From a virus: DNA of 64,000 nt. The translations under genes were made by a program, and so were the position numbers. The first letter of the stretch is position 1, and the number at the start of each line of letters is the position of its first letter. The notes beneath the pieces were generated by a model that was not told where the DNA came from, did no database searches, and worked only from the letters and a program-made list of their open reading frames with translations. Location of the stretch: positions 32,001 through 96,000 of IMG/VR virus record IMGVR_UViG_3300001533_003144. The stretch is one strand, 5' to 3'. Positions 5,133 to 38,767 of this stretch are shown here, piece by piece.

Positions 5133-5143
5133 GAGGTCTTACT

Positions 5144-5434
5144 ATGTTAAATGGTACTAATTTTGTTCCTGTCACCAAAGATATTTTTAAGCAGATGAGT
5201 TCTGCCGAAAAGGAAGAAGTTATTTCACATTTTAAAAGGGAATGTTTGATGGCTTCTGATGATATTCAGGGTGTTATTGATTTTGCTACGGATGTAATCC
5301 GATTGAGTCATAAGTTGCCGGTTAAACTAGATTTCAGTCAGATAATTGCAGCTATTAATAATGAAGAGGTAGCAGATCCAACTGTTATTGAGCATAGTGA
5401 AGTGGCTAAGGGGGGTGAAAATGTCCCCGAATAA
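5144..5434 (+). CDS. Hypothetical protein
   Basis: AGGAGG RBS, 96 aa. Confidence 0.6.
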   Translation: MLNGTNFVPVTKDIFKQMSSAEKEEVISHFKRECLMASDDIQGVIDFATDVIRLSHKLPVKLDFSQIIAAINNEEVADPTVIEHSEVAKGGENVPE

Positions 5435-23733: not shown

Positions 23734-26067
23734 ATGAATATTGGTCAAATAGCTTCTACTGCCATTAGGAAACTAAAGGCTTGGAGCATAGGAAAAATGA
23801 ATTCGGAAGGATTCATTGAAAGGACAAAAAATAATGTAGATACGCCTTTGAAATGGGAGCCTTTTGTGACGGAGAGGTTGTGTGCTAAGGGTGATGGTGC
23901 TACCGCTTATATGACAATGAATTCAGCGGTAAACTTTGTATATACTAAAGATTTCTCTATAGAGTATTTATGGCAAGTAAAAGCAATAGATGTTCTGAAA
24001 ACTCTTTTTGGTTCTTCATCGGATACTCTTGACTATTTTCATCAAACGGAAAATAATGACAATCAGATAGGTATGTTTGATGCCGGTATTGGAACGTCAC
24101 GCAAGGTATTTTTTACTTCTGCTTTTTTGATTGATAACACATACCATATTGATAGTTCGTACAGTAAGACTACTAAATTATGGACAATTACAAGAACTAA
24201 CCTAACAAGCGGAGTCGATAATGAAACTGCGAATATAGACTGCACTGGATATAATTTCGACCTGCAAATTAATAGACTATTCTCAAGAGGTTATGGCGAT
24301 AGATTCTTACCCGACTCTATTTGTTGTCTTAAAATGTCAATTGATGGTGTATTAGTAACTAACTACCCTTTAGAGCTGTCGGGTTATGACATATCAGGAA
24401 ACGCCAACCATCTAACCAATTACGGTGTTGACCTTGGAGCAACCTACGAAAACGCAAACGGTGTATATTCCTACAATCTTAACAACGGTTTCGACCTCTA
24501 CTCTAAAGACGGAACAGACCCAGTTGAATACATGGAAGTCCCCTATGTGGACGGTTCACCAGTTGTATCATCTGTCACAGGATATACAAAGGTATCAGAA
24601 CACCCAGCGGGATTCCATTTTAACAATTCTTCTATCAAGTTCGTGCCTTTTTCAACAGGACATGACGGAACTGGATGGGTGGTTCCGCAGGAGATAAAGG
24701 ATATAGATACGGACTTTATATTACATAACGAAACAACAGGCTATGCAATTGAGTTCGATAGAGATACCATACAGGATATATTGACAGCGGACAGCGATTA
24801 TGTATTCATAGACCTGTCCGAAGAAAATAAAGTCAAAAATCTGATGCTCTACAGAGAACCGTTGACAGGCGTTGAGCTTGTAAAAGCAAGGAAGTTCTGC
24901 AACTATGAGGAGTCGTGGGATAATGTTACTTTGAATTTGACACTTACCACAACTTCTGATTCCGAATCTGTTTCGATTGAAAAAGTTATGTTGAGCGAAG
25001 AGAGTGAGATTGACTGGGGTGATGGTAATACAACAACTCTTAATGCTGAAACTGATTATGTACCGCTGTCACATACATACGCAAGTGCAGGCAGTTACAC
25101 TGCCAAGATCAAGAAACCGAGCAGTATAACTCAGATATGGATTCGTAACAACAAAATAAGCGGTTTCCATTCCGCTCAGTTGAGGTTTGCAGATGTCTAT
25201 GATCTTAGATGCAATAATCTTGGCACTGCAAAAGAATGCGTGGTGAAATCGGAGCACATGACTTCTTGGATAGGGTATTATTGGATGTTACACTCAATGC
25301 CGAGCGGAACCTATAATATCGACAGTTCAGACCTGACATCTTGGACAGGGTATTATTGGCAGTTACACTCAATGCCGAGTGGAACATACAACATAGACAG
25401 TTCGGACATGACATCATGGACTGGGGGTTATTGGCAGTTATACTCAATGCCGAGCGGAACCTATAATATCGACAGTTCAGACATGACATCTTGGACAGGG
25501 TATTCTTGGCTTTTACGCTCCATGCCGAGCGGGACATATAACATAGATTCAGCCCACATGGTGGATTGGACTGGGACTGCTTGGTATCTCTACTCCATGC
25601 CGAGCGGGACATATAACATAGATTCAGCCCACATGGTGGATTGGACTGGGACTATTTGGATTCTCTACTCCATGCCGAGCGGAACCTATAATATCGACAG
25701 TTCAGACATGACTTCTTGGACTGGGCAGTATTGGCGGTTATACTCAATGCCGAGCGGGACATACAACATCGGTGCATCAACTATCAGGAACTGGACAACG
25801 AATGAGGTTATCAATCTTTATAATTTAGAGGATTCAGTAAGTGGTCTGAATGTCCTTGCAACAGAATCCGAGTGCATAAAGGTTATTGACGACATCTACG
25901 CAGGTAGATTGACCTTTAGAGGGACACCTGTTCTTATCCTAACAGGAACTAACGCGGATATAACCGATGCAGGAACACGAACCAAGATAGATCACTTGAG
26001 AGCAGGCGATGACGGAGTCGATACATTTCAGCCTTGGGAAATTAATGTTAACGGATATCCAGCATAA
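23734..26067 (+). CDS. Putative receptor-binding fibre: LamG-like, PKD-like and LRR-like repeat domains
   Basis: DISGNANHLT (LamG-associated); IDWGDG...HTYASAGSY (PKD); seven 25-aa tandem repeats. Confidence 0.7.
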   Translation: MNIGQIASTAIRKLKAWSIGKMNSEGFIERTKNNVDTPLKWEPFVTERLCAKGDGATAYMTMNSAVNFVYTKDFSIEYLWQVKAIDVLKTLFGSSSDTLDYFHQTENNDNQIGMFDAGIGTSRKVFFTSAFLIDNTYHIDSSYSKTTKLWTITRTNLTSGVDNETANIDCTGYNFDLQINRLFSRGYGDRFLPDSICCLKMSIDGVLVTNYPLELSGYDISGNANHLTNYGVDLGATYENANGVYSYNLNNGFDLYSKDGTDPVEYMEVPYVDGSPVVSSVTGYTKVSEHPAGFHFNNSSIKFVPFSTGHDGTGWVVPQEIKDIDTDFILHNETTGYAIEFDRDTIQDILTADSDYVFIDLSEENKVKNLMLYREPLTGVELVKARKFCNYEESWDNVTLNLTLTTTSDSESVSIEKVMLSEESEIDWGDGNTTTLNAETDYVPLSHTYASAGSYTAKIKKPSSITQIWIRNNKISGFHSAQLRFADVYDLRCNNLGTAKECVVKSEHMTSWIGYYWMLHSMPSGTYNIDSSDLTSWTGYYWQLHSMPSGTYNIDSSDMTSWTGGYWQLYSMPSGTYNIDSSDMTSWTGYSWLLRSMPSGTYNIDSAHMVDWTGTAWYLYSMPSGTYNIDSAHMVDWTGTIWILYSMPSGTYNIDSSDMTSWTGQYWRLYSMPSGTYNIGASTIRNWTTNEVINLYNLEDSVSGLNVLATESECIKVIDDIYAGRLTFRGTPVLILTGTNADITDAGTRTKIDHLRAGDDGVDTFQPWEINVNGYPA
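25261..25770 (+). repeat. Seven in-frame 75-nt tandem repeats (TSWTGxxWxLxSMPSGTYNIDSSDM)
   Basis: Units start at 25261, 25336, 25411, 25486, 25561, 25636 and 25711. Confidence 0.95.
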
Positions 26068-26079
26068 TAGGAGGAAACA

Positions 26080-26580
26080 ATGATAAAAATTAAAGATTTC
26101 ACCCACGAAGAACTCACAACCCTTCTGAATTCCGACACGGACTTCACCCTGGACAACACTGATAAGGTAGGAATAGAAGTTCCTGTCAGAGCGTTGGAAA
26201 TAACTATTAAGAAAAAGATGTATCAGGAAGATATAATTGATACACTTGAAGGGACGCTGACAAAAGAACCAGACTGCAAAGACGGAAAGGAACCAGTAAA
26301 GAAAACCGAAATAGACTGTAAACTAGCAATTGCTCCAGACCACGAAAGAAAGATAAGGGAGTATTTCAGAGTCTATGAGGAAACAAAGGACAAAGCGATA
26401 CTATTGCCTTTTATACAGGACACCAGAGGTCACGAATGCTTCACCAAAGAACAATTGAAATTTCTCCTTGAGATAACAGGCGGACAAATTGTTGAAAGAC
26501 CTGTTAAAGAAGAAGCCGAAGAGACACCTGAATTACAAGTTATAGAAGGAGGGAAAGTATGTTTTATCATCCCGAACTAA
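26080..26580 (+). CDS. Hypothetical protein, possible fibre assembly chaperone
   Basis: AGGAGG RBS; directly follows the fibre and shares its codon style. Confidence 0.55.
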   Translation: MIKIKDFTHEELTTLLNSDTDFTLDNTDKVGIEVPVRALEITIKKKMYQEDIIDTLEGTLTKEPDCKDGKEPVKKTEIDCKLAIAPDHERKIREYFRVYEETKDKAILLPFIQDTRGHECFTKEQLKFLLEITGGQIVERPVKEEAEETPELQVIEGGKVCFIIPN

Positions 26581-26771
26581 ATAAAGCAACTATCCGTCCA
26601 AGAATAAAAAATGTAAGTAACCCCTCAGATGATACTATTTATCAGAAGGGTTGGATAGATCTTGTTGATGAAATCCCTGAATATAATCCTGAAACACATT
26701 TTATTCAGGTAAAGAAAATAAGGGTAGAGGGGGGTAAAGCATATAGAGAGTTTGAGGTAGTTTCATTATGA
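26559..26771 (+). CDS. Small tail-fibre-associated protein
   Basis: GW...V...PEYNPETH motif typical of small fibre-assembly proteins; GGAGGG RBS. Confidence 0.55.
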   Translation: MFYHPELNKATIRPRIKNVSNPSDDTIYQKGWIDLVDEIPEYNPETHFIQVKKIRVEGGKAYREFEVVSL

Positions 26772-26923
26772 GAAAACTCTTTTTCTTAATGATTTTATTG
26801 GTTGTTTGTATTGTTGCTTTAGAGGAATGCCGTAAGGGGTGTGGAAGCTCTTACAATCCTCTTTGTTTGGTCAAGTGTTATGATCAATATAATGAATGTA
26901 AGAGAAATGCTTCCGTATTATAG
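26768..26923 (+). CDS. Small Cys-rich peptide with hydrophobic N-terminus (51 aa, not in the ORF track)
   Basis: ATGA overlap, GAGGT RBS; MRKLFFLMILLVVCIVALEECRKGCGSSYNPLCLVKCYDQYNECKRNASVL. Confidence 0.6.
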   Translation: MRKLFFLMILLVVCIVALEECRKGCGSSYNPLCLVKCYDQYNECKRNASVL

Positions 26924-26960
26924 TGGTGTCCTTTGTTAATTTATTTTTTGTGAGGTTATT

Positions 26961-27281
26961 ATGCGAAATTTAGTTTTGGTTATTTTACTTGTTACTATGT
27001 TTATTGTTGCCGGTTGTCCTACTTCTCGGATTATCCGGGGAAGTTTCCGGGATGGTAGTGGTAATTTGTACAGTTACCTTCTTGAAGATGATCCAAAGGA
27101 GAAGGTGGCTGAGGTTTCTGTTGCTTACAAAGGTAAGGAGTACCGTTGTCAGGTTAAGTACACTACAGACGATCCTAACCTGCTTGAGGTTGATGTCGAT
27201 GTCAGTCAGGCGGATATTACCGGATCGGTTAAAGTTACTTATAAGAAGGTTTCGGTGCATTGTTCTCTTTTAGAAGTTTAG
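26961..27281 (+). CDS. Putative lipoprotein
   Basis: Signal peptide ending in lipobox VAG|C. Confidence 0.65.
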   Translation: MRNLVLVILLVTMFIVAGCPTSRIIRGSFRDGSGNLYSYLLEDDPKEKVAEVSVAYKGKEYRCQVKYTTDDPNLLEVDVDVSQADITGSVKVTYKKVSVHCSLLEV

Positions 27282-27291
27282 GGAGGTTACT

Positions 27292-27513
27292 ATGCCTGTT
27301 GAGATGATTCCTGTGGAAAGTTCTAACCTTTCTGCAATCGGGTACGATTCTGATACTTCTACTTTGTATGTAAACTTTCTTAATGGTAGCCAGTATGCTT
27401 ACAAGGAGGTTCCGGAAGAGGTCTTTGAAGAGTTTAAAGAGTCTGATTCTAAGGGTCAGTTTCTTCATCGTAGAATTAAGTTGGGTGGGTTTGAGTACGA
27501 AAGGGCTATTTAG
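27292..27513 (+). CDS. KTSC domain protein
   Basis: VESSNLSAIGYD...LYVNFLNGSQYAYKEVP...SKGQFLHRRIK is the KTSC signature. Confidence 0.92.
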   Translation: MPVEMIPVESSNLSAIGYDSDTSTLYVNFLNGSQYAYKEVPEEVFEEFKESDSKGQFLHRRIKLGGFEYERAI

Positions 27514-27528
27514 CTTTTGGGGTTTGGT

Positions 27529-28266
27529 ATGCGTAATTTTCTGTTAGTTCTCTTGGTTATGGTTTTATTGCTTGCTCTTGGTGTTTTTGGCGCTTTTTAT
27601 GGGGTTGACTTTAGTTTTATTTTTAATGACATTTCAAACTTTCTTACGGTAGCGGTGCTTCCTGGTTTTATTGCTTGGTCCTCAAAGAATCTTTCTGGAC
27701 ATCTAAAACAGGTAGATTTTAGGATATCTGAGACTACTCGTGAAACTACCGAGAAATATAATAAAGTTGAATCCGGGATAATGTCCTTACAGAAGGATAT
27801 AGGGCACATAAGAACACAAGTGAAGCGAATGGTTAAACTAAAAGATACTAAAGCTTTTTACCGCAGAGAGTTACTTAATACACAAAACTTGTGCTTAGAA
27901 TTTATGAGGTACAACGAAAACCTGTTCAAGTTTGCTTCATTAAAAGGAGACTCTTTCAGGTCTTTTGTGTTGGATGTCCACGATATGGATATTACTGCTG
28001 ATTGTGTAGAGGCCGTTATCCGTTTAGGAATAACGGTATCTGAGGAGATGAGGCAAAAGGGTTGTGCTTTGCTTGGTCAGCCTTTTATGAATGCTTTTTA
28101 TGAGGAGCATTCTGTAGAAGTAGAAAAGTTTCTTAAAGACATTTGCCGGATATTTACCGATCCCGATAATTCTAAACATGAAAGGTTACAAGAACATAGT
28201 GTTCGGTTTTTACGGCAGTTTCTTTCGGCCTTAAATAAGTCTTTTATGGGCTTTCAAAAAAATTAA
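27529..28266 (+). CDS. Membrane protein with two N-terminal TM helices and a coiled-coil
   Basis: Hydrophobic N-terminal segments followed by a soluble helical C-terminus. Confidence 0.55.
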   Translation: MRNFLLVLLVMVLLLALGVFGAFYGVDFSFIFNDISNFLTVAVLPGFIAWSSKNLSGHLKQVDFRISETTRETTEKYNKVESGIMSLQKDIGHIRTQVKRMVKLKDTKAFYRRELLNTQNLCLEFMRYNENLFKFASLKGDSFRSFVLDVHDMDITADCVEAVIRLGITVSEEMRQKGCALLGQPFMNAFYEEHSVEVEKFLKDICRIFTDPDNSKHERLQEHSVRFLRQFLSALNKSFMGFQKN

Positions 28267-28313
28267 ATAAATTCAGTTTCTTATAAAAAAGTTAAGGAAA
28301 TTGAAAATTTCTC

Positions 28314-28342
28314 TTGACATAGGGTTTATAGTCCTTTATCTT
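28314..28342 (+). promoter_or_regulatory. Sigma70-type promoter for the replication block
   Basis: TTGACA (28314-28319), 17-nt spacer, TATCTT (28337-28342), with an A-rich upstream element. Confidence 0.7.
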
Positions 28343-28371
28343 TTAGAGAGTCTATGTTGAATGGGTGTTAA

Positions 28372-28881
28372 ATGAAGCTCTCCAGGGAAGTTAAAAAACA
28401 GATTACAATCCCTCAATACTACAGGTACAAAGGATTACCTTTTCCGGAAAAGGTCGAGAAAGAAGGAGGCTTGTTTTCGTGTCAGATACACGGACCCGAT
28501 CTTAACCCTTCTGCTTTTTACAATCGAAGAGAAGGTACGATGTATTGTTTTGCTTGTGGTTTTTCTGGGGATGTCTTAGCTGTAATTAAAGAACTTGAAG
28601 GGCTTACTTCTTTCCGGGAGGTTTTATCGTTTATCTACATTACTTTTAGGATAGATCCCTCTGAAACTATTATTGAGGAGGATGGAGAAGCTGATTACAA
28701 GGACAAGTTCAGGCAGAGTATTATTGCTGAATTCGAGCCTTTTCTGTGGGAATATATTGATTTAACTCAAGACTTTTCTGTCTTGGAAGATGTGTCTGAT
28801 CTATACTCTATTGAAGATAATACTAAATTTTATAAAGCTATATCACAATTTAAGGAGAAACTAAATGCAAACCGGATTTGA
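28372..28881 (+). CDS. Stand-alone CHC2 zinc-finger (primase zinc-binding domain) protein
   Basis: CQIH...NPSA...YCFACGFSGDV...ELEGLTSFRE; no TOPRIM domain follows. Confidence 0.8.
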   Translation: MKLSREVKKQITIPQYYRYKGLPFPEKVEKEGGLFSCQIHGPDLNPSAFYNRREGTMYCFACGFSGDVLAVIKELEGLTSFREVLSFIYITFRIDPSETIIEEDGEADYKDKFRQSIIAEFEPFLWEYIDLTQDFSVLEDVSDLYSIEDNTKFYKAISQFKEKLNANRI

Positions 28882-29338
28882 TTATGTCTTAAAAGAACAT
28901 CAGCTTACTCTAATCGCAATTGCTAGGCAATATGAGTGGTTGACTTTTTCGTGGGAAGATCTCTATCACGATTTAGTTTTGTATGTGGTAGAGCGGTTAG
29001 ATACCTACAAAGGCAAGATGCTCAATATGAACAGTCTTGTTACTTTGCTTGCTCGAAGGTGCGTGAATGATAAGGTTAAAACCTTTTACAACCGGAAAGA
29101 AAAGATTGCTTATGTGCCTTTCATAGATGATATTTTTAAGGTGTATGCTTTTGAAGATGTTCGTCTTTTAGATATGGATATGCAGCAGATAGATAAAGTT
29201 ATTAAAAGCTTCTTATTAGATTGTGCTTCTATAGGAAAAGCTAAGGCGAGGAAGGTACATTGTCTTACTTCTTTTGAGGCGGACTTCTATCTTGAACAGG
29301 CAAGAGAGTTGTTAAAAGATTATGAGGGTATGGTATGA
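28865..29338 (+). CDS. Sigma-factor-like protein (ECF-type region 2)
   Basis: IARQY...WEDLYHDLVLYVVERLDTY...LVTLLARRCVNDKVK resembles sigma70 region 2; short helical C-terminus. Confidence 0.55.
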   Translation: MQTGFDYVLKEHQLTLIAIARQYEWLTFSWEDLYHDLVLYVVERLDTYKGKMLNMNSLVTLLARRCVNDKVKTFYNRKEKIAYVPFIDDIFKVYAFEDVRLLDMDMQQIDKVIKSFLLDCASIGKAKARKVHCLTSFEADFYLEQARELLKDYEGMV

Positions 29339-29898
29339 CTACTTGTAAAAAATGTAAAGGAAAGGGGTTTATTTTAAACTCGGATAACAGTACATCTTTG
29401 TGTGTATGTCAAAAAACCTTACAATTTAAAAAGGACTTGGAAGATCGTGGCTTCCGGTTAGGTATGATTAAGCCTTGGGATGTTTTAAATTCTCCTGCTG
29501 TTCATAAAATAAAATCTTTGTCTTATAAGGATATTTTTCTTATAGGTAAATCAGGTGAAACTGTTTTTTATTCTTATATGACACATCTTCTTTCAAAGGA
29601 AACCCGTACACGAATCTTTTCCAGTTCGGAACTGACTGAGATATTTCTAAGCAAGGGCTCTGAATACCAGTCTAAACTGTCTTACCTTAGTTTAGGAATA
29701 GTGTTAGGGTTTGATCTGACCAACAGTATTCAGGGAAAAGTTATGGCGGATTTTTTATTCTTCCGGAAATCAAATAAGAACTGGCAGACAGTCTTTTGGT
29801 TGCCTTACAATTCTATGAGGAGGCTGGAAACCGAGTATGGTGATGTTTTTTCGGAATATATTAAAGAAGGTGATTTAAATTTGGTTGAGGTTAAATAA
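29335..29898 (+). CDS. Degenerate DnaC/DnaI-like helicase loader
   Basis: CKKCKGKG...CVC zinc motif; FLIGKSGE at the Walker A position; LETEYG near the C-terminus; adjacent to DnaB. Confidence 0.55.
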   Translation: MTTCKKCKGKGFILNSDNSTSLCVCQKTLQFKKDLEDRGFRLGMIKPWDVLNSPAVHKIKSLSYKDIFLIGKSGETVFYSYMTHLLSKETRTRIFSSSELTEIFLSKGSEYQSKLSYLSLGIVLGFDLTNSIQGKVMADFLFFRKSNKNWQTVFWLPYNSMRRLETEYGDVFSEYIKEGDLNLVEVK

Positions 29899-31364
29899 TG
29901 TCTATTAAACAAGAAAAGGAAACCTTAGAAATACAATTAAAAGATCTGTTGGCTGTAGGGTTCCAATCGAGGTCTTTGGACTATTTACAGCAGTTACTAC
30001 TTATCCGGGAAGATTTTTATGTGAATGCTTATTGGTACACTCTGGTTAATGTTTGTGCCGATGCTATGATCGAGTATCGTACTGAGGAAATGTCCGAAGA
30101 ATTTTTGCTCCGTTTTATTGAAAAGAAGAAACTTTTAGCAGGTCCTCTTTTGGCTTATAAAGATTTTATGGCTATGGAAGTTGAGGCTTTGAGCCTTAAC
30201 AGGTTCAGGCTTGAGGTAGATATTTATATTGAAAATATGTCCAAATATCTGTTTAAAAAGTCTATCTACAACTCACTCAAGAACTGGGACGATAATACCT
30301 ATCCCAGTATAAAATCTAAGATGTTTAAGGATGTGGGTGTTATTGATACTTACAGAGGTACGGGCAGTTTGCCTGAAGGTAACATTAATCAGGATATGGC
30401 TGATGTTCTAATTAACATTGAGGCAGGTAAAGCTCTTACTGATCGTGGGGTACTTACCGGGTTTTCTCACATAGACTCTACAACAGGGGGGTTTATTCCG
30501 GGAGATCTTGTTTTTATTCTTGCTTATACTTCTCAAGGTAAATCTACGATGTTACTTAATACAGGTTACAGTTGTATGCTTAATGGGGGTAACTGTGTTT
30601 ATTTTGTGAATGAGTTACAATACCGTCAGGTCAAGGTCAAGTTTCTTGCTAGGCATACAGCAAACTCGGTGTTCTGGGACGGGCAGCTTAACGGTGTGGC
30701 AACAAAATCACTTGAGCAAGGTACTTTATCCAAGACCGAACTTAAAGTCGTTAAACAGGCAGCGAGGGATATAAGGACAAATAAAAAATATGGTAGAATT
30801 TATGTTGTTCAGTTACCTTCCGGATCATCACTAAACTATATTGAGGCTAAATTGACTTCATTACAGGCCACCTTTCCGGTGGATCTGGTTATTATAGATG
30901 ATTTACGGCTTTGTACTGGTGATCTTAAAGGGGATGATAAGGCGGTATTGAGTAAGGTAGTGGTTGCAGCAAAGAAACTGGCTGTAAACTTTAATCAGGG
31001 TAAAGGTGTTCCAATTTTATCTCCTTGGCAGACAAAACAGGTTTCTTTTGAGGAAGCAAAGAATAAGGGTAGATACCCGATAAATATTGCTTCGGACACT
31101 AATGAAGTTGAGAAACAGGGAGATGTTTTGATATGGTTACTGCAGACAGAGGATCTTAAACGGAAACACCAGATCCTTTCTGGTATTACAAAAAACCGTA
31201 TGGGTTCAACTATAGAATCTTTTGTTCTTATGGAAGAATGGTCTTATAGCTATATGTCTGAGCTTTCCGGGGTAGCTGTTGAAGTTGGTGGTAATACTTC
31301 TCCTGAGATTGAGTCTCCGGAAGAGTTTAAGTTTTTGTTAGATGAGGCTTTAAATATTGATTGA
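29898..31364 (+). CDS. dnaB: DnaB-like replicative helicase
   Basis: GVLTGFSHIDSTTGGFIPGDLVFILAYTSQGKS (Walker A), YFVNE, LVIIDDL, PWQ, KNRMG. Confidence 0.9.
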   Translation: MSIKQEKETLEIQLKDLLAVGFQSRSLDYLQQLLLIREDFYVNAYWYTLVNVCADAMIEYRTEEMSEEFLLRFIEKKKLLAGPLLAYKDFMAMEVEALSLNRFRLEVDIYIENMSKYLFKKSIYNSLKNWDDNTYPSIKSKMFKDVGVIDTYRGTGSLPEGNINQDMADVLINIEAGKALTDRGVLTGFSHIDSTTGGFIPGDLVFILAYTSQGKSTMLLNTGYSCMLNGGNCVYFVNELQYRQVKVKFLARHTANSVFWDGQLNGVATKSLEQGTLSKTELKVVKQAARDIRTNKKYGRIYVVQLPSGSSLNYIEAKLTSLQATFPVDLVIIDDLRLCTGDLKGDDKAVLSKVVVAAKKLAVNFNQGKGVPILSPWQTKQVSFEEAKNKGRYPINIASDTNEVEKQGDVLIWLLQTEDLKRKHQILSGITKNRMGSTIESFVLMEEWSYSYMSELSGVAVEVGGNTSPEIESPEEFKFLLDEALNID

Positions 31365-31372
31365 GGTGTTTT

Positions 31373-31567
31373 ATGAAAAAACTAGACAAGTATCTTTTAA
31401 AACTGGCTAAGGAGATCGGTGTTAATGTTGTTGTTAGGTCTGCTAAGTATCCTGATAAACCTATCTTTAGATTAGAGGTAAGTTCCGATCTTTTAACTCA
31501 GTATAATAGGCAGTGTGATGTTTACCGGTTTTGTAAAAAACACGGGATAAAGATTTTGAATGATTGA
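31373..31567 (+). CDS. Hypothetical protein
   Basis: ATG follows GAGGTG. Confidence 0.55.
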   Translation: MKKLDKYLLKLAKEIGVNVVVRSAKYPDKPIFRLEVSSDLLTQYNRQCDVYRFCKKHGIKILND

Positions 31568-31655
31568 GATAAGCCTATGATTAGATTTGAAAGCCTTGTG
31601 GTAAAGGAGTTTCCCGTAAAGGGGTTTACGCTTGATATAAAATATGGGGTATTAA

Positions 31656-31835
31656 ATGAAAAAAGCTTTAATGACACTGACTATGATAGATGCCTACAAT
31701 CAGATACACGATATGTTTGATACAGGTAAAGGTTGGAGGAAACCTCCTGTAGCTAACAAACCTAAGCAGGGTAAGAAAAGACCTGCTGGGAAAGGTAAAA
31801 AGGCAAAAAAATTTGGTAAAAAGAAGAAGAGGTAA
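31656..31835 (+). CDS. Small highly basic protein (59 aa, not in the ORF track)
   Basis: MKKALMTLTMIDAYNQ...KPKQGKKRPAGKGKKAKKFGKKKKR; probably binds nucleic acid. Confidence 0.55.
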   Translation: MKKALMTLTMIDAYNQIHDMFDTGKGWRKPPVANKPKQGKKRPAGKGKKAKKFGKKKKR

Positions 31836-31840
31836 GTTAA

Positions 31841-32020
31841 ATGCCTTGTAAAAACTGTATGAACATGGGCTGTCCTTTCAGGTGGGTTAGAATCACCATT
31901 AATGGGGTTCTTAGAGATCCTCAGTTTATAGTGGTAAGGCACGAAATGGCTGGTAGGTTTTTGTTTGGTTGTAAGAAATATCTACCTGATGAAGATTTAA
32001 GGGAAGGTTTTAATGGGTAG
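31841..32020 (+). CDS. Small Cys-containing protein (59 aa, not in the ORF track)
   Basis: GAGGT RBS; MPCKNCMNMGCPF...GCKKY, possible zinc binding. Confidence 0.5.
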   Translation: MPCKNCMNMGCPFRWVRITINGVLRDPQFIVVRHEMAGRFLFGCKKYLPDEDLREGFNG

Positions 32021-32339
32021 TTTCGAGTATGTATTATCTTCTTTTATTGAGGATTATGCTGAAGTGTTTAGAGAGGAAAAGGAAAGCGTTCGTACCTATA
32101 GCCAGATGTGGTTATATATTTGCCACTTTACAAAGCTTCTTTATTTTCGGAGCTTTTTTGATAGAGAAACCTTTTCTATTTTTAGTGAGGTTAGACTTCC
32201 TGTTGCAAGCAAACCTCCTATTAATTTGATAGTGTTTATGTTTATAGAATCCTATAAGGAGCGTGTTAGGGGGATACAAAATATCTCAGTTATTTCGGAT
32301 AGAAACATTAGATATTACGGGTTTGATGAAGAAATTTAA
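32013..32339 (+). CDS. Hypothetical protein
   Basis: GGAAGG RBS-like sequence; 108 aa. Confidence 0.5.
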   Translation: MGSFEYVLSSFIEDYAEVFREEKESVRTYSQMWLYICHFTKLLYFRSFFDRETFSIFSEVRLPVASKPPINLIVFMFIESYKERVRGIQNISVISDRNIRYYGFDEEI

Positions 32340-32347
32340 AATTTCTT

Positions 32348-32375
32348 TTGACATTGGGGGCTGGTTTGTTATAAT
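32348..32375 (+). promoter_or_regulatory. Consensus sigma70 promoter with extended -10
   Basis: TTGACA (32348-32353), 16-nt spacer, TGnTATAAT (TATAAT at 32370-32375). Confidence 0.85.
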
Positions 32376-32382
32376 AGTATTA

Positions 32383-32394
32383 GATCTTTGAAAA
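32383..32394 (+). promoter_or_regulatory. boxA-like antitermination element GATCTTTGAAAA
   Basis: Resembles the rrn-leader boxA (TCTTTGAAAA type) and sits at the predicted transcription start. Confidence 0.55.
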
Positions 32395-32397
32395 ATG

Positions 32398-32827
32398 AGT
32401 AGAGCTGAAAAGGGTTCTTCTGGACGATGATTCCAAGAGTCGTGGATGCCAAGAAAGAGAACATTTGTGAGGTAGGCAGGGTTGAGGGCATAGCTGTAAA
32501 GGCTGGTATTGCTTAATTTAAAATTCCTTAACATAATACAGAAGTCCGGAACTGACGAAAGAAGTAGTCAAGTCCTACGGAACAGCAATAGAACAGTAAT
32601 GAAAATCAAGGTAGCACCTTAGTAGGGGGTTTGGTCTGGATACCATCAGCAGTGGTGGAGTAAGATGGGGGGCTTAACGGACGGGAAGTAACTGTTATTT
32701 CTGAACAACAGAATATTGGAGTACCTGAAGCATGAGGAGGATTCCTAGTGAAAAAGTCGGGGAGTGTAAACTTAAAAAGAAAAATCATTCAGACAAGTAG
32801 CGTTGGAGAGTCCTTTTGAGTTCTATT
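32398..32827 (+). ncRNA. Candidate large structured non-coding RNA (~430 nt)
   Basis: No credible + strand ORF; 32398-32420 pairs with 32805-32827 (22 of 23 pairs including G-U); internal hairpins; purine-rich, unlike the T-rich coding DNA. Confidence 0.7.
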
Positions 32828-32841
32828 TATGGAGGTGTGAT

Positions 32842-33621
32842 ATGCGAGTAGTTGTTTCTGTTTGGGCTTCTTATCAAACAAGAGAGCGGTCAGATTTTAA
32901 GGAAGGGACTGTATCGTTAGTTTTTAACGGTGTTCCTTGTAAGGACCGGATTACTGCTGAGATAGTTTCTCAGACTGCTTATATTGCTGATAACAACGGT
33001 AATACACCATTGAACTGGGCTTCCTATTATGGAAACATCGAAATAGTAGAACTACTTTTACAAGCAGGAGCAGACCCGAATATTGCCAATAAAAACGGCA
33101 ATACACCGTTGTACGAGGCTTCCTCTAAGGGTCATAAGGAAGTTGTAGAACTACTTTTACAAGCAGGGGCAGACCCGAATATTGCCGATAACAACGGCAA
33201 TACGCCGTTGAACTGGGCTTCCTATTATGGAAACATCGAAATAGTAGAACTACTTTTACAAGCAGGAGCAGACCCGAATATTGCCAATAAAAACGGCTAT
33301 ACACCGTTGTACTGGGCTTCCTATAATGTACACCACGAGGTTGTAGAATTACTTTTAAAATCAGGAGCAGACCCGAATATTGCCGATAAATACGGCCAAA
33401 CACCGTTATACTGGGCTTCCTATAGGGGGCACCGCGAAATAGTAGAACTACTGTTACAAGCAGGAGCAGACCCGAATATTGCCAATAAAAACGGCAATAC
33501 ACCGTTGTACGAGGCTTCCTCTAAGGGTCATAAGGAAGTTGTAGAATTACTGTTACAAGCAGGGGCAGACCCGAATATTGCCGATAACCTCTTTGGTTTG
33601 GTCTCTTGTATCAGTGAGTAA
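32842..33621 (+). CDS. Ankyrin repeat protein (6 repeats)
   Basis: Six GxTPL...AS..G..E.VELLL..GADPNI units; true start ATG 32842 follows GGAGGTG. Confidence 0.92.
   Translation: MRVVVSVWASYQTRERSDFKEGTVSLVFNGVPCKDRITAEIVSQTAYIADNNGNTPLNWASYYGNIEIVELLLQAGADPNIANKNGNTPLYEASSKGHKEVVELLLQAGADPNIADNNGNTPLNWASYYGNIEIVELLLQAGADPNIANKNGYTPLYWASYNVHHEVVELLLKSGADPNIADKYGQTPLYWASYRGHREIVELLLQAGADPNIANKNGNTPLYEASSKGHKEVVELLLQAGADPNIADNLFGLVSCISE
32981..33588 (+). repeat. Six 99-nt tandem ankyrin-coding repeats
   Basis: Units at 32986, 33085, 33184, 33283, 33382 and 33481; unit 1 nearly equals unit 3, and unit 2 nearly equals unit 6, at DNA level. Confidence 0.95.
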
Positions 33622-33696
33622 ACTTACCGATGAGGAGTATAAAAAAATGTCTGGTAGTGACTTTTTTATTATGGTTATATAGGAGGTGGGGGTATT

Positions 33697-34272
33697 ATGA
33701 AGTGTATTAAAGACTCCCAAGAAAGGTTTGGGGTTATGTCTTATCAAACCCGTATGACAGAAGAGTTTAGTCTGGTTGTTGATCAGGCTGTTGAGTTATT
33801 AGAGCCTGTAGTCCGGGATATAGGTGTTCCTGTTGAGGTAACGACTTTTCTTGTCAATGGAGAGGATTCCGATGAGATGTGTTGCGAGAAGGAAGAATGT
33901 ATTTCAGTTGTAAGGTCTAAGCTTGTTTCAAAATATGGTGAAGATGCTATTGAAGATTACCGCTACTCCAATGATGGAGACCTTGATGTGGTTGAGGGAT
34001 GTAGTCAGTGTGGTTCTCCTTTAAATTCGCATCTTACATGGTGTGAATCCGAACTGGTATATGTTGAAGGTCTGTATGATGAGCGTTTTCGGAAAGAGGG
34101 TTTTGTGCTTTATGCTATTCTGAACAGTATGCCTACCTTTGACAGAGAAATAAAGCCTTGGACACTACAGAAGGGGGGAAAGATTCTTGCCAGTGCTATA
34201 GAGGACCGTGAGGCTTTTTTTCAAAGGGTGTTAGTTGTTGCTCAGAGAGTTAAAAAGGTATTTGGTCGATAA
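33697..34272 (+). CDS. Hypothetical protein with Cys clusters
   Basis: CC...C and CSQCG motifs; AGGAGG upstream. Confidence 0.6.
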   Translation: MKCIKDSQERFGVMSYQTRMTEEFSLVVDQAVELLEPVVRDIGVPVEVTTFLVNGEDSDEMCCEKEECISVVRSKLVSKYGEDAIEDYRYSNDGDLDVVEGCSQCGSPLNSHLTWCESELVYVEGLYDERFRKEGFVLYAILNSMPTFDREIKPWTLQKGGKILASAIEDREAFFQRVLVVAQRVKKVFGR

Positions 34273-34298
34273 TATGAGTTTAAATTGGAGGCATTAAG

Positions 34299-34697
34299 AT
34301 GCAGATGATTATTTTGGTTGTATTGGTATTAGTGGTAATTTTTGAGACAGTTAAATCTGTTGTTGAGATTAAAAAGAAAAACAAAGAAAGCCGTGATTTC
34401 GATTCTCGTTTGACTGAACATCTTTCGGAAACAAGGGTTAGTTTAAATGGTTTCCTTGGTAAAGCTGAGGATCAGATAAATCAGTTTACTGATCATATTA
34501 AGAGTGATGTATTTGATCAGTTTGCTAAAGAGCTTGAAAAGGCTGAACAGGAGAAGTGGAAAGCCATATCCGAGTTGAACTTATATGTTACGGCAATCCG
34601 GTCGCTGGATCCTAACTACCGGAAAAAAATCCAGACAAGGGTTGATGCTATGGTTAATAGATCTAAACAACAGCCGGTACAAAAAGACAAGGGGTAG
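34299..34697 (+). CDS. Membrane-anchored coiled-coil protein
   Basis: N-terminal TM helix; GGAGG RBS. Confidence 0.6.
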   Translation: MQMIILVVLVLVVIFETVKSVVEIKKKNKESRDFDSRLTEHLSETRVSLNGFLGKAEDQINQFTDHIKSDVFDQFAKELEKAEQEKWKAISELNLYVTAIRSLDPNYRKKIQTRVDAMVNRSKQQPVQKDKG

Positions 34698-34700
34698 TTA

Positions 34701-35501
34701 ATGTTGAGAACTAAGCAAGAAATAAAAAATCTTCTTAAAGAGAGAGTTAAGCAGTTAATGGAGACCCGAATAGGTGCGGTGGAAGATGCTCTTAATCTGT
34801 GGGGTAAGGTAGAACACACTGATAAACAATCTTGGTGGTATATACCGCCAAAGGGAGGAAAGCCGCCTAAAGCCTGTATGGTAGCCCACATAGACACGGT
34901 TGACGATGATAGCAGGAGGGTTGTTAAAGATCTGGATGCTGTCCTGTTATTGGATCCCCCTTCCGAGTCGAGTTGTTTAGGGGCAGATGATCGTGCCGGG
35001 GTAGTTGCTTCTACCTTTTTATGGGAACAGAATCCTGAAGTAGCTCTACTTCTTACTAATTATGAAGAGTCCGGTCGTGCGGGGGTTGCTAATTTTTGCG
35101 ATGCTTTTGAATCCCTTGGTATAGATTTTTCGGATCTCAGACTATTTATCTCAATAGACCGTAAAGGTACGCACCATTTTGTGGATTATGCTGGTAATCC
35201 TTATGCGGGGAATGATTGGGTGCGTTCTTTTGGGTGGGAAGAGGAGTACGGGTCTTTTTCAGACATTGCTACTTTACAGCTCCTATTAAAAGTACCTGCA
35301 ATAAATATAGCTACAGGGTATTATCACGAACATACCCTGTACGAACTTTTGGTAATGTCTGAATGGGTTTTTGCTATAGATTTTGTTCAAAAGCTTATAG
35401 ATAATATTGCTGGGTGTCCTGTTTTAAGGATTACTGGTGAAATTGATCCTGATGCTGTTTTTTGTTATGATGATATTTATAGATCTGGTTCCGTATTATA
35501 A
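34701..35501 (+). CDS. M20/M28-family zinc metallopeptidase
   Basis: AHIDTV, LGADDRAGV, EESG, IDR and YYHEHT metal-binding motifs. Confidence 0.85.
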   Translation: MLRTKQEIKNLLKERVKQLMETRIGAVEDALNLWGKVEHTDKQSWWYIPPKGGKPPKACMVAHIDTVDDDSRRVVKDLDAVLLLDPPSESSCLGADDRAGVVASTFLWEQNPEVALLLTNYEESGRAGVANFCDAFESLGIDFSDLRLFISIDRKGTHHFVDYAGNPYAGNDWVRSFGWEEEYGSFSDIATLQLLLKVPAINIATGYYHEHTLYELLVMSEWVFAIDFVQKLIDNIAGCPVLRITGEIDPDAVFCYDDIYRSGSVL

Positions 35502-35524
35502 TATAGATAGGCTTTGGAGGTTTT

Positions 35525-35986
35525 GTGATGGATATGTCTGATTATTTTCAGTTGTTGAGACCCTTTTTTGCTTGGCGTTCCTCTGAGTTCTTGGGGGTTA
35601 AGTTAATACATAAATCAGCTAAACGCCCTAATTATGTGATTTACAGGGGTCTATCCGAGTCAGGTTCTACAAAACATATCCGGATATATGTTCCAAAAAA
35701 AGACGAGGAGGTTATAGTTCCTTTTTCTAAGGGGTGGTATCTCTGGCAATCGTTTGATGAGGTTAAAGCCTCGATAGATTCTGTGGCATTGGGGGTTTTG
35801 CAGGAGATAAGTAAGGATACTTCTTTAATTGAAGCTATTTTACAGAGTATAAATGTGCTGATAATTGAAAACCGGGTTAAAAGCCCTCGGTTGATTTCTC
35901 CGGAAGTGGGTAGGGCTGTTTTAGATTTAATCGATAAAAGTCACCGGAGAGACGAGATTAGGGATATCTCTTCTGATGGGGGTTAA
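35525..35986 (+). CDS. Hypothetical protein
   Basis: GGAGG RBS, 153 aa. Confidence 0.55.
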   Translation: MMDMSDYFQLLRPFFAWRSSEFLGVKLIHKSAKRPNYVIYRGLSESGSTKHIRIYVPKKDEEVIVPFSKGWYLWQSFDEVKASIDSVALGVLQEISKDTSLIEAILQSINVLIIENRVKSPRLISPEVGRAVLDLIDKSHRRDEIRDISSDGG

Positions 35987-36149
35987 TTTGAAAGAGAGAA
36001 TTAGTTTTGGGTTTTTCCCTAGGATTTTTCTTGTAGTACCTACCTTTATTATTAGTTGGACGGACGAGGGGGTTGCTCTAAGCTTGAGTTGGTTATGTTT
36101 AGGTATATCTTTTTTAGTAAAAAAACGCAGGAAATGGGGGTGTAAGTGA
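35976..36149 (+). CDS. Small hydrophobic protein (57 aa, not in the ORF track)
   Basis: MGVNLKERISFGFFPRIFLVVPTFIISWTDEGVALSLSWLCLGISFLVKKRRKWGCK; fills the gap and overlaps the next start (GTGA). Confidence 0.45.
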   Translation: MGVNLKERISFGFFPRIFLVVPTFIISWTDEGVALSLSWLCLGISFLVKKRRKWGCK

Positions 36150-36442
36150 TGTGGAGACCTATAAGAAATTCTGCAGGTGAGTGTACTTGTGGTGAGGCTG
36201 TTTTTGGGCTTTACAAGTTTATGGTAAAGTTTGAGGCAGGTGAGTGGGTTACTCGTTGCCCTCAGCTTAATACGGGTTGGATTAGTCTCAAGCTTCCCGA
36301 AAAGACCCCTTTTGAGTTGATCTGTTTCCACGCCTCAAAAAGGCTTTTCCAAGAGTATAAACAAGAAAACGATAAATTTGTTACAAGTTATATAAACTAT
36401 CAAAGGGGATTTCAAAAGGAAGTTGAAGCCCTTAGAAAGTAG
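36146..36442 (+). CDS. Hypothetical protein, possible zinc ribbon
   Basis: CTCG...RCP pattern. Confidence 0.5.
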   Translation: MMWRPIRNSAGECTCGEAVFGLYKFMVKFEAGEWVTRCPQLNTGWISLKLPEKTPFELICFHASKRLFQEYKQENDKFVTSYINYQRGFQKEVEALRK

Positions 36443-36450
36443 ATTGTTAA

Positions 36451-37029
36451 ATGGAGGATTTAATGTTAGCTGTGTTTTATGGTAATTTAATTTTTGCGGA
36501 TTATTTCCCTAAAAACTACCCTTTAAAGGTAGTGAACTTTGAGCACTATTCTTCTTCTAAGGATATGCTTGACGCCGTTACAGACCCTAATTCGGTCGTG
36601 ATTGTTGAAAATGTCTATAAACTGAAAATCTACTATGAATATTTTATCAGTAGGGCAATATCAAACAGTAAAGAAAGTATTGTGGTGTTATCTGAACTCC
36701 GGTTTGATTATTTCAGGGAAGTGAAAAGGGCTATGGCTACTTTTCTTGCTAAACTTTCAAAGGTGCCTAATCCGGTGGTATTCACTTTCCCTTTAGAGGA
36801 GAGGGAGAATAATCTTTATAACCGTATATACCCTGCTGGGTACGATGATTTTTCTTTGTTTGGAGGTAACTTCAAGATGATCGTACCTTTTACGGAGGTT
36901 GATGGCAGTCCTATAGCTATAACCTCTTTAGCTCTACAGAGGAATGTGAAGTTTAAGAACTTTTCAGAGTATCGGGAATATCTCCTATCTTTTCTACCTA
37001 AAGAAGATTCTGGGGGAAGTGCCTCTTAA
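36451..37029 (+). CDS. Hypothetical protein
   Basis: 192-aa ORF; real start is probably ATG 36463 after GGAGG. Confidence 0.55.
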   Translation: MEDLMLAVFYGNLIFADYFPKNYPLKVVNFEHYSSSKDMLDAVTDPNSVVIVENVYKLKIYYEYFISRAISNSKESIVVLSELRFDYFREVKRAMATFLAKLSKVPNPVVFTFPLEERENNLYNRIYPAGYDDFSLFGGNFKMIVPFTEVDGSPIAITSLALQRNVKFKNFSEYREYLLSFLPKEDSGGSAS

Positions 37030-37032
37030 AGC

Positions 37033-37043
37033 TTTATATAATA
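37033..37043 (+). promoter_or_regulatory. Putative late promoter TTTATATAATA
   Basis: Intergenic motif copy marking the return to late genes (spanins, neck). Confidence 0.72.
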
Positions 37044-37067
37044 CTTGAGCAAGGCTGTGAGGTTAAA

Positions 37068-37484
37068 ATGTTTTCGGTTGCCTTTAAAATTATAAAAGAC
37101 TTCGTTTTAAAATACTGGTATGTTGTCCTTATAGCTTTGCTCGTTTTGGCTGTTTTAGCTTATGTGGGTGTATTGAGGTACAGGTTGGTTAGAGTTAATC
37201 GTGAAAATGAGCGGCTTACTACGGAACTGATTGAACAGCAGTTTATTATATCCTCTTTAAAGGAGGAGGTTGCTCGTTTTAAAAAGGAGAGGGTTTACCG
37301 GGACAAGTTAATTAAGGTGTTAGAAGAAATGAAAAGAGAGGAGATTATCCGGGAAAAACATTTTCATACTCAAGTTGAGAATAATAAAACTGTTGTAGAA
37401 AAATATGAGGAAACTAATGATCTTTTACCCGTCTTTTGTGAGATTGATCGGTACTTCGGTATTACTACTGATCAGTGTGAGTAG
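37068..37484 (+). CDS. Inner-membrane spanin (Rz-like)
   Basis: N-terminal TM helix, coiled-coil, C-terminal Cys; overlaps the downstream lipoprotein gene. Confidence 0.7.
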   Translation: MFSVAFKIIKDFVLKYWYVVLIALLVLAVLAYVGVLRYRLVRVNRENERLTTELIEQQFIISSLKEEVARFKKERVYRDKLIKVLEEMKREEIIREKHFHTQVENNKTVVEKYEETNDLLPVFCEIDRYFGITTDQCE

Positions 37485-37758
37485 CTGCTGTCACTTTTGT
37501 CCTACAGAGGTAGTTACTCAGACTCGCTATGTTATACCTGATTTTGCTGAATGCAGTTTATTCTATCCGGAAGAGGTGGAGTACAGTCCCTTACCTAAAA
37601 ACAGTTTAAGTCGGTTTACCGGGGAAGATCTTCTGGTGTTATTGAACAATTTAGCCCTTAGAGAGAAGGAATTAAATTCTCTCAAGGCGGTTATATCTTG
37701 TTACAGTAGGGTTTTAAAGGAAGCTTCTACAGTTTTTAAGGGAGATAAAGATGAATAA
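37405..37758 (+). CDS. Outer-membrane spanin (Rz1-like lipoprotein)
   Basis: Lipobox-like VSS|C followed by a Pro/Cys-containing segment; overlapping-spanin architecture. Confidence 0.65.
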   Translation: MRKLMIFYPSFVRLIGTSVLLLISVSSCCHFCPTEVVTQTRYVIPDFAECSLFYPEEVEYSPLPKNSLSRFTGEDLLVLLNNLALREKELNSLKAVISCYSRVLKEASTVFKGDKDE

Positions 37759-38767
37759 GGTGAATGTTTTTTATGTGGATCAGTTTTATAGTGATATAGT
37801 CCTTCTGGGGGATTCTGCTCCTGCCAAAGTACATTGTTGTGAGTTAAGTTTACCTTTTGCACTGGCAGCAGAAGTAAAGACTCCTAAACTTTTTGCAGGT
37901 GAACTTACTCATATCATACTTAAAAGTGATTCAGGTTACGGGTTTAGTCCTAATTTGGTTTGTATTTCTGGAGACACTATTATTACCCCTGTACTGATTA
38001 GTGAGGGTATTTTGGCTATCCCTGTAAAAAAGAGTGCCGGTACACATAGTTTTGTTCTTACGGACGGGGTTTCTAACTTAGGGTTTTCGGTAGAGTTTGT
38101 GGGTGTGTTAGATTCTGTGGATACTTTTTCTTTTATAGACAAGTATTACTTTCCTTTCTTTGGTGGATTAACTCGTAAGGTTGTTTTAGAGGTTGATTCT
38201 TCTTTTCAAATACACAAAATTACCGCTAATGGGATACCTGTAGGGGATTTGTCTTTTCTGGATTCTCATTATGTCCTCTTCAGTTGTTCTTTTCCTTTAA
38301 ATGGTTCCTATGGTATTGTTCTATATGATGATGAAGATAACATTCTACATTCGTTTTCGGTTACAGTTGCTTTGGAGCAGCAAATAGATGTAGGTGTTGT
38401 CGGTACTTTTTTTGAGGACTTTATGTATGTTTATCTTCTTTCCGGCCAGTATCCTGCAGGAGGTGTGTTTGTCATAGATCATGGTGATTTTCTTATTAAA
38501 CCTGTCTCAAATTTGGAGACATTGCCCGACAAGATGGCGTTATCTGAATCCGATAGGTTCGTTTTTGTTGTTCGGGACAGGGCAGGTGGTGTTGTTCCTT
38601 TAACGGGCTATACCATTACTTCTCAGGGGTTTTCTTTGTCGGGTTTTACTGATCACAATGGGGTTATCTCTTTATCTTGGTATCAGTTACCTAAAGTTTT
38701 TGATCTGAGTTTTTCCAGCTATGACTTGACTTATCTTAACTGTACATTAAGCAATAAGGGAAAATAA
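37751..38767 (+). CDS. Beta-rich virion structural protein
   Basis: Ig-like beta-strand pattern; lies in a late operon. Confidence 0.5.
   Translation: MNKVNVFYVDQFYSDIVLLGDSAPAKVHCCELSLPFALAAEVKTPKLFAGELTHIILKSDSGYGFSPNLVCISGDTIITPVLISEGILAIPVKKSAGTHSFVLTDGVSNLGFSVEFVGVLDSVDTFSFIDKYYFPFFGGLTRKVVLEVDSSFQIHKITANGIPVGDLSFLDSHYVLFSCSFPLNGSYGIVLYDDEDNILHSFSVTVALEQQIDVGVVGTFFEDFMYVYLLSGQYPAGGVFVIDHGDFLIKPVSNLETLPDKMALSESDRFVFVVRDRAGGVVPLTGYTITSQGFSLSGFTDHNGVISLSWYQLPKVFDLSFSSYDLTYLNCTLSNKGK

Follow-up and report, generated by a model that had tools for sequence, protein, structure and literature searches.

The phage DNA examined here is a window of 64,000 nt (bases 32001-96000 of a 119,995-nt IMG/VR virus record with an estimated completeness of 65%; coordinates are those of the window unless marked as contig). 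Directly upstream of an ankyrin-repeat gene, the window carries a unit laid out like the leader of a ribosomal RNA (rRNA) operon. A consensus promoter is followed by a boxA, the boxA by the 5' strand of a strand-specific helix, and the helix encloses a stretch that codes for no protein (Table 1). We propose, with modest confidence, that the unit is a mimic of an rRNA leader (promoter, boxA, leader-trailer helix) giving rise to a long untranslated RNA ahead of the ankyrin gene. Because the evidence rests on one sequence, the value of the proposal is that of a well-defined hypothesis, not of a result.

Promoter, boxA and closing helix of the unit

The promoter conforms to the TTGACA-16-TGnTATAAT consensus claimed in the original prediction, scoring 12/12 plus the TG of an extended -10. 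The runner-up in 26000-38000 scores 10, and promoter-like sites are not enriched overall in that interval (33 found, 30.5 ± 5.8 expected). Across both strands of the whole contig, the exact pattern TTGACA-N15-19-TATAAT occurs only here. Judged by its spacing from the hexamers, transcription would start at about 32382-32383.

A boxA-like element had been noted right after the promoter, and this is confirmed. The element, GATCTTTGAAAA at 32383-32394, lies 7 nt 3' of the -10 hexamer, and its 11-mer GATCTTTGAAA (32383-32393) falls at about +1/+2 when the start is placed by spacing. The B. subtilis rrn leader has the boxA consensus AUGAUCUUUGAAA, which perturbs the nuclear magnetic resonance signals of NusB (PMC13753749). 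Of the 13 bases in 32381-32393, 11 match this consensus, and the 11-nt core does so without exception. The gamma-proteobacterial consensus, given as GYTCTTTAANA (PMC5725501), is matched at 9 of 11 positions, a poorer fit than that of the B. subtilis type. Within the contig the 10-mer TCTTTGAAAA has a single occurrence, in this element.

The same core is found in front of bacterial rRNA genes. In 402 sampled genomes the 11-mer was sought 40-400 nt upstream of the 16S 5' end, with the reversed pattern as a control. It was present in 18 of the 402 genomes, at 34 places, whilst the reversed control gave 0. The phylum of a Clostridia metagenome-assembled genome (MAG) contributed 11 of 201 genomes and 26 places (two genomes give nine and seven), and the phylum of a Lentimicrobiaceae MAG 7 of 201 genomes and 8 places. 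These counts are lower bounds, since most MAGs lack rRNA operons. Firmicute 16S leaders resemble the window for seven more bases past the 11-mer. As a separate observation, GATCTTTGAAA occurs 13 times in the 3 Mb of a Lentimicrobiaceae MAG (genome G007, which holds locus L011) against 0 for the reversed pattern, exceeding what rRNA leaders would lead one to expect.

We treat the element as a genuine boxA because it matches the B. subtilis consensus, occurs in 16S leaders and has a single copy in the contig. Judged by these sequence criteria it is a boxA at the 5' end of the transcript, where it is predicted to bind NusB/S10. In a fold extended to 32900 the boxA is predicted to be about 0.9 unpaired. 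A fold ending at 32860 instead pairs 32384-32389 with the ribosome site (P 0.84); a regulatory pairing of this kind was rejected as not robust, since the fold to 32900 replaces it by pairing with 32894-32898.

The helix begins 1 nt past the boxA and joins the two ends of the unit. Its 26 positions (32395-32420 with 32805-32830) comprise 19 Watson-Crick pairs, six G-U pairs and one G-G mismatch (32407/32818), with pair probabilities of 0.94-0.99. The pairing of 32398-32420 with 32805-32827 put forward in the original prediction is therefore real and slightly longer than described. The unit used for shuffling (32382-32842) was bounded by the predicted start and the start codon, not by the helix. 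Its first and last 70 nt form a duplex of -40.8 kcal/mol, against -21.9 ± 5.1 kcal/mol in dinucleotide shuffles, of which 2 in 2000 do as well; when the strongest long-range duplex at any place within the unit is considered, 2 of 100 shuffles equal it. The notable point is the placement of the helix, which brackets the gap exactly.

The helix also has a strand. The arm duplex is worth -28.7 kcal/mol when the RNA is of + sense, against -11.9 kcal/mol in the - sense, and its six transition-type imperfections are all G-U in the + sense, with no A-C. As DNA the arms are only 75% complementary. The earlier argument that the G-U wobbles speak for RNA structure rather than for a DNA inverted repeat is borne out by the two energies.

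The stretch enclosed by the helix does not code. No + strand open reading frame (ORF) of at least 70 amino acids (aa) is present in 32340-32802, and stops are numerous in all three + frames. Codon log-odds, trained on 97 long ORFs of the contig, are negative in all frames over 32380-32740 and positive in the flanking genes; mini-ORFs of 11, 29 and 37 codons were rejected for want of a ribosome site. The gap had been described as the largest without a credible + strand ORF. The lack of coding stands. By the 70-aa criterion the gap ranks second in the window and third in the contig; the larger window gap (31365-32012) contains four small ORFs of 47-68 aa. The composition of the gap is A 0.34, G 0.28, T 0.25 and C 0.13, against A 0.29, G 0.24, T 0.33 and C 0.15 for the contig.

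The stems claimed for the interior fared unevenly. The hairpin UAGCU-GUAAA-GGCUG (P 0.70) and a UGAC/GUCA core (P 0.91) are predicted to form; CCAUC is predicted to pair not with GAUGG but with the nearby UGGUGG (P 0.95). The inward continuation of the closing helix through AUGAUU and AAUCAU is outcompeted by a local hairpin, 32427-32433 with 32437-32443 (P 0.91). A sponge of the CsrA type was considered and rejected, the roughly 12 GGA counted by hand being what base composition predicts. Inside the non-coding RNA, 32515-32529 is a 14/15 copy of the A/T motif that lies upstream of the promoter, followed by TTAACA; this was rejected as a second promoter, having no -10 at a usable distance.

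The A/T palindrome at the promoter would be either an UP-element-like part of a strong promoter or an operator. Together with TTGACA it forms a 23-nt motif with three copies in the contig, at window 28297, window 32331 and contig 102468, with 2, 0 and 2 mismatches. The two paralogous promoters (28297 and contig 102468, the latter outside the window) carry the palindrome GAAATT[T/G]AAAATTTC followed by TTGACAT, which suggests either one co-regulated class of three promoters or a common operator. Both paralogues lack a boxA, and only the long-leader promoter of the three has one; leaders are about 35 nt at the paralogues and about 460 nt at the 32348 promoter. Elsewhere, one other IMG/VR phage (L005) and eight bacterial MAG loci carry a degenerate form of the motif; several of these sites are obvious promoters, and one of the MAG loci precedes a transfer RNA (tRNA) gene. 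By these occurrences the upstream motif marks a genuine class of promoter, whether it is of UP type or an operator. In L005, at about 5100-5290 on the - strand, an identical 24-nt motif (upstream element and TTGACAT together) may belong to a small RNA gene: some 140 nt with no obvious ORF come next, and then a strong hairpin with a T run that resembles a terminator.

Searches for relatives and boxA-led units in other phages

The unit was compared with described RNA families. Rfam 15 gave 0 matches in the window at gathering score, and a permissive scan (E ≤ 10) of 32200-32950 returned one chance match, to a plastid untranslated region (UTR), with E = 1.3. The original prediction had offered a short divergent relative of ROOL or GOLLD as one identity for the RNA. 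Such kinship is unsupported: Rfam 15, which includes both families, gave no match to either at any threshold tried. The RNase P models RF00010 and RF00011 found nothing at E ≤ 10 in the whole contig, nhmmer with E. coli rnpB had no match in the region, and no convincing pair for the RNase P P4 core was seen by eye.

Relatives were sought in phages and in bacteria. The region gave no blastn match among 50,697 phage records, and a helicase-guided search of viral contigs (a single protein, a 9-sequence alignment) found no relative. Metagenome contigs reached through the helicase comprise three loci, L002, L003 and L004, none of which carries the region: L003 stops at the helicase, whilst L002 and L004 have different genes 3' of it. 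Two interior motifs searched against viral contigs gave one chance match, in a high-GC contig, and none. Against 401 genomes of the phylum of the Clostridia MAG, blastn produced matches of 18-70 nt in 81 genomes (best per-genome E = 2.2e-4); these were judged to be chance.

Other phages do carry boxA-led units. Viral contigs were scanned for a consensus promoter with the boxA 11-mer in the next 25 nt, which yielded 20 loci falling into about eight sequence groups. Two of the groups, with 10 loci (L014/L015/L026/L027/L030/L032 and L018/L020/L028/L033), lead into protein genes: the boxA lies about 25 nt after the -10, and ORFs of 108-114, 208 and 319 aa begin 35-53 nt past it. Since protein genes stand directly 3' in both groups, phages seem to use a boxA of Gram-positive type on mRNAs too.

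Two further groups lead into RNA. Their 7 loci represent three distinct sequences (L019 = L016; L031; L022 = L017 = L023 = L029) on contigs that are tRNA-rich fragments of giant phages. The distance from the -10 to GATCTTTGAAA is 7-9 nt, which agrees with the window. Next comes a conserved RNA of 355-535 nt that contains no ORF, and 3' of it a tRNA gene whose anticodon is CGC. RNAalifold on the three sequences (a 554-column alignment) predicts 64 pairs, 29 of them with compensatory changes. The 5' strand of the closing helix starts 3 nt past the boxA, and this helix also shows compensatory changes among the three distinct sequences.

The giant-phage RNA has in common with the P4 core of E. coli rnpB the words AGAGGAA...GTTCG and ACAGAA...CGGCT and a compensating long-range helix. 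RF00010 did not match it at E ≤ 10, and nhmmer with rnpB found nothing. Possibly it is an RNase P RNA of phages that has diverged strongly; no earlier description came up among the papers listed. Kinship of the window RNA with this RNA was considered and rejected, as MAFFT aligns only the boxA convincingly and blastn and nhmmer found nothing. Although unrelated in sequence, the giant-phage RNA is, as read from its alignment, of the same boxA-then-closing-helix design.

Table 1. Positions of the unit, its neighbours and the comparable RNA of giant phages
Feature	Position	Strand	Remarks
Sigma-70-type promoter	32348-32375	+	TTGACA 32348-32353, 16-nt spacer ending TGT, TATAAT 32370-32375; extended -10 TGtTATAAT
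boxA GAUCUUUGAAAA	32383-32394	+	Predicted NusB/NusE (S10) loading site, 5' extremity of transcript
Leader (5') strand	32395-32420	+	Pairs with 32805-32830; in minimum free energy and centroid structures
Enclosed interior, 384 nt	32421-32804	+	Non-coding, purine-rich, no Rfam family
Trailer (3') strand	32805-32830	+	Stops 1 nt short of Shine-Dalgarno
Shine-Dalgarno GGAGG	32831-32835	+	Read from sequence
Ankyrin-repeat gene	ATG 32842, stop 33621	+	Pfam Ank_2 E = 5.8e-86; ORF in frame from 32803
15-nt A/T palindrome	32331-32345	+	Directly 5' of -35 hexamer
Paralogous promoter	28297-28342	+	Palindrome + TTGACA, 17 nt, TATCTT; precedes primase-helicase genes; short leader, no boxA
Gene order upstream of unit		+	Primase zinc-ribbon protein, DnaB-like helicase, four small ORFs, 108-aa ORF
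Giant-phage boxA-led RNA	L031 9255-9609	+	
Giant-phage boxA-led RNA	L022 11502-11862	-	
Giant-phage boxA-led RNA	L019 12521-13056	-	

A proposed mechanism and its alternatives

The model for the unit comes from rRNA operons. There, NusB/S10 bound to boxA is described as remaining on the elongating polymerase, so that the leader strand of the leader-trailer helix stays close to the RNA exit while the trailer has yet to be transcribed (PMC10250234, PMC4807359). The rRNA leader-trailer helix is given as 25-40 bp, positioned just 3' of boxA and containing the RNase III site (PMC10250234). In E. coli, boxA is reported to restore expression across a non-coding 5' UTR insert of 567 bp in which Rho otherwise brings about termination (PMC4807359). 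The window contains all of these parts, arranged in that order and more tightly spaced, which leads us to propose Nus loading, Rho protection, helix closure and an RNase III cut.

Host RNA polymerase would start at about 32382, at what we take to be the strongest promoter of the contig. The boxA, as the first bases made, would load host NusB/S10 and other Nus factors, and the polymerase so loaded would resist Rho across about 450 untranslated bases, with the leader strand tethered near the RNA exit. Once the trailer strand emerges, the 26-position helix would close. Host RNase III would probably then cut it, which would free an RNA of some 400 nt and shorten the leader of the ankyrin mRNA. A further step is possible but falls short of probable: that this RNA of about 400 nt is the first of a new class of stable phage RNA, produced through the host's rRNA maturation route (UP-type promoter, Nus tether on boxA, leader-trailer helix, excision by RNase III), which could act as a strongly expressed effector or as a decoy diverting Nus factors or RNase III from the making of host ribosomes.

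Several points weigh against the proposal. They can be summarised as (i) the sequence shows the promoter, the identity of the boxA, the lack of coding and the strand-specific helix, whilst the place of the start, the loading of Nus factors, the tether, the cut by RNase III and any role for a released RNA are things that we infer from it; (ii) no terminator-like site is found between the helix and the ankyrin gene, and the RNA would therefore at first be simply the 5' UTR of that gene; (iii) genes for RNase III and NusB number 0 in the contig (65% complete), and the proposed route therefore relies wholly on host factors; (iv) an attempt to assign the host from the boxA left the matter undecided and was abandoned, since the core is common to the 16S leaders of at least two phyla and therefore names no host; (v) the B. 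subtilis rrn leader is described as having a small hairpin before its boxA (PMC13753749), for which the window has no room; (vi) the + strand of the contig holds three helices of at least 22/23 pairs (G-U allowed, arms 60-700 nt apart), and for this reason the helix taken alone is not unique; (vii) no homologue of the interior was found among phage records, viral contigs, metagenome loci and the 401 genomes.

The predicted fold belongs with these points. The original prediction of a large, ornately structured interior found no support in shuffling: 32427-32800 is no better than shuffles (z +0.73, 149 of 200 as good), with ten coding control windows of the same length at -0.83 to +2.11. The whole unit has z -1.11 on the + strand, where 16 of 100 shuffles are as good, and +0.74 on the - strand. 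Only a sub-domain at 32634-32794 does a little better, with z -1.98 and 6 of 200 shuffles as good.

The alternative that survives best, though we hold it to be rather unlikely, is that the stretch is only a long cis-acting 5' leader of the ankyrin gene. The boxA would carry polymerase across the untranslated bases into the genes beyond, in the manner of the lambda nut sites, the helix would fold the leader out of the way and so expose the ribosome site, and no separate RNA product would have a role. This would fit the missing terminator, the trailer that ends 1 nt before GGAGG, and an interior that is no more stable than shuffles and has no relatives found. It would also fit the promoter-boxA pairs placed directly before protein genes in other phages, where ORFs follow 35-53 nt past the boxA. 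A leader of about 450 nt is left unexplained, however, when the two paralogous promoters make do with about 35 nt, and such gaps are very few in so gene-dense a contig. The layout of helix to boxA is that of RNA maturation and not of nut sites, and the pairing of boxA with the ribosome site that would have offered regulation is not robust.

If a real promoter were followed by no more than a neutral spacer or what is left of a lost gene, the helix would be a chance match. The three comparable helices of the contig allow for this, as do the z values of unit and interior, the orphan status of the region and the lack of conservation of genes 3' of the helicase in L002 and L004. We nevertheless consider it improbable. 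Chance would have to account for ends paired so well in just 2 of 2000 shuffles, for six imperfections that are all G-U in the transcribed sense, and for a helix placed 1 nt from the boxA and 1 nt from the ribosome site. The composition also differs, at T 0.25 and A 0.34 against T 0.33 and A 0.29 on the contig coding strand, and there is no residual frame signal.

Transcription primes replication in ColE1, through RNA II, and at the transcription-dependent origins of phages T4 and T7. In the same manner the unit might be a DNA replication element, whose G-rich untranslated transcript stays in place as an R-loop and acts as the primer. Its position 1 kb 3' of the primase-helicase genes would suit such a role, as would a non-template strand that is G-rich, C-poor and has several G5-6 runs, and a GC skew (0.339 in its 1-kb bin) among the higher ones of the window. 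Yet cumulative GC skew keeps climbing at an even rate across the site and does not turn, iterons are absent (the direct repeats measure 10-15 nt and have two or three copies), and a boxA and an RNA-specific helix are not known as features of such origins. We regard this as very improbable.

It is hardly credible, finally, that the RNA belongs in divergent form to a family already described (ROOL, GOLLD, RNase P RNA, tmRNA, a riboswitch leader, or the RNA of a retron or diversity-generating retroelement): the size and closing helix do resemble RNase P RNA (P1), some short words are like RNase P motifs and other phages have an RNase P-like RNA behind the same promoter-boxA pair, but Rfam has nothing at E ≤ 10 except the one chance match, RF00010 and RF00011 find nothing in the contig at that threshold, nhmmer with the giant-phage RNA profile or E. 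coli rnpB is empty in the region, and the contig has no tRNA or tmRNA genes and no reverse transcriptase.

Genomic setting and relation to known systems

The long ORFs of the window all lie on the + strand; G+C is about 0.39 and GC skew is positive and steady. Two metagenome runs from aquatic or freshwater sediment carry the phage DNA and may represent the source sample. Across 31300-33039, these two DNA runs show zero differences from the record. The DnaB-like helicase has matches in 15 of the 50,697 phage records, all below 60% identity, and by this measure the phage is distant from isolates; relatives of the helicase in a large protein collection range from 82 to 45% identity. The unit lies 1 kb 3' of the primase-helicase genes.

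The ankyrin gene follows the unit directly. The codon score turns positive from 32830 onward, in this gene, and is positive in the next. The gene would by default be co-transcribed with the non-coding stretch. Within the ankyrin repeats (33163-33588) assemblies fragment into contigs of 42-216 nt with a depth of 6-38, against about 9 in the flanks, and these fragments show one A-to-G difference, at 33194. Because of the fragmentation, the number and order of the ankyrin repeats in the record may be uncertain.

ARAGORN found 0 tRNA or transfer-messenger RNA (tmRNA) genes in the contig, and for reverse transcriptase PF00078 had no match at E ≤ 1 in the contig (65% complete). At contig 110180-110280 (outside the window, about 78200 in window coordinates) there is a 352-nt gap with GGTTCGATTCC, a word like that of a tRNA T-arm. 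Near this gap the profile of the giant-phage RNA gives weak nhmmer matches, at contig 110363-110391 (E = 1.8).

As a proposed mimic of an rRNA leader, the unit shares with rRNA operons a strong promoter, a boxA, the 5' strand of a helix, an enclosed RNA and the 3' strand, in the same order. Its boxA core agrees base for base with the B. subtilis rrn consensus, as published for that leader (PMC13753749), and with natural 16S leaders of two phyla. The helix of 26 positions compares with the 25-40 bp stated for rRNA (PMC10250234). The differences are also clear. The unit encloses about 385 nt without similarity to rRNA, and its boxA and helix are 1 nt apart, whereas in Enterobacteriaceae boxA is placed 18-19 nt before boxC (PMC10250234). 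The boxA of the window stands at about +1/+2, with no 5' hairpin or boxB. Moreover the unit is borne by a phage and has a protein gene directly 3'.

Lambda has its nutL and nutR sites (for the composition of nut, see PMC10250234) and an RNase III site in the N leader. As there, a phage boxA lies near an early promoter, is predicted here to recruit host Nus factors, and is combined with a leader helix before the first gene. In contrast to lambda, the window has no identified boxB hairpin or N-like protein, its boxA is of the Gram-positive rrn type, and its helix is a long-range clamp over 384 nt rather than a local hairpin.

Among large phage RNAs, the unit resembles ROOL and GOLLD in being a candidate non-coding RNA of several hundred nucleotides in a phage genome. 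It differs from them in having no covariance-model match, no tRNA neighbours and no excess of interior structure. With the boxA-led RNA of giant phages it shares a consensus promoter, GATCTTTGAAA, the 5' strand of a closing helix nearby and an ORF-free RNA, whereas the RNase P-like core and the tRNA with CGC anticodon found there are absent from the window. On these comparisons, the most fitting place for the unit is beside the rrn leaders, as a phage version of their design, and outside described RNA families.

Ribosomal RNA operons, and to some extent lambdoid nut sites, are where boxA, Nus factors and leader-trailer helices have been described. With its 450 nt, the unit is a small natural system in which to examine the tether model of how leader-trailer helices form. 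Should the enclosed RNA not be stable, it would still be a clear example of a boxA guarding a long untranslated phage leader, in a host that is probably Gram-positive. Should it be stable, it would be a new orphan among the few large phage RNAs. If the unit does mimic an rRNA leader as proposed, phages would borrow from the antitermination complex not only antitermination but also its co-transcriptional function in RNA folding. If in addition the enclosed RNA were the first of a new class, the parallel with the boxA and helix of giant phages would indicate a strategy that phages use generally to fold large RNAs.

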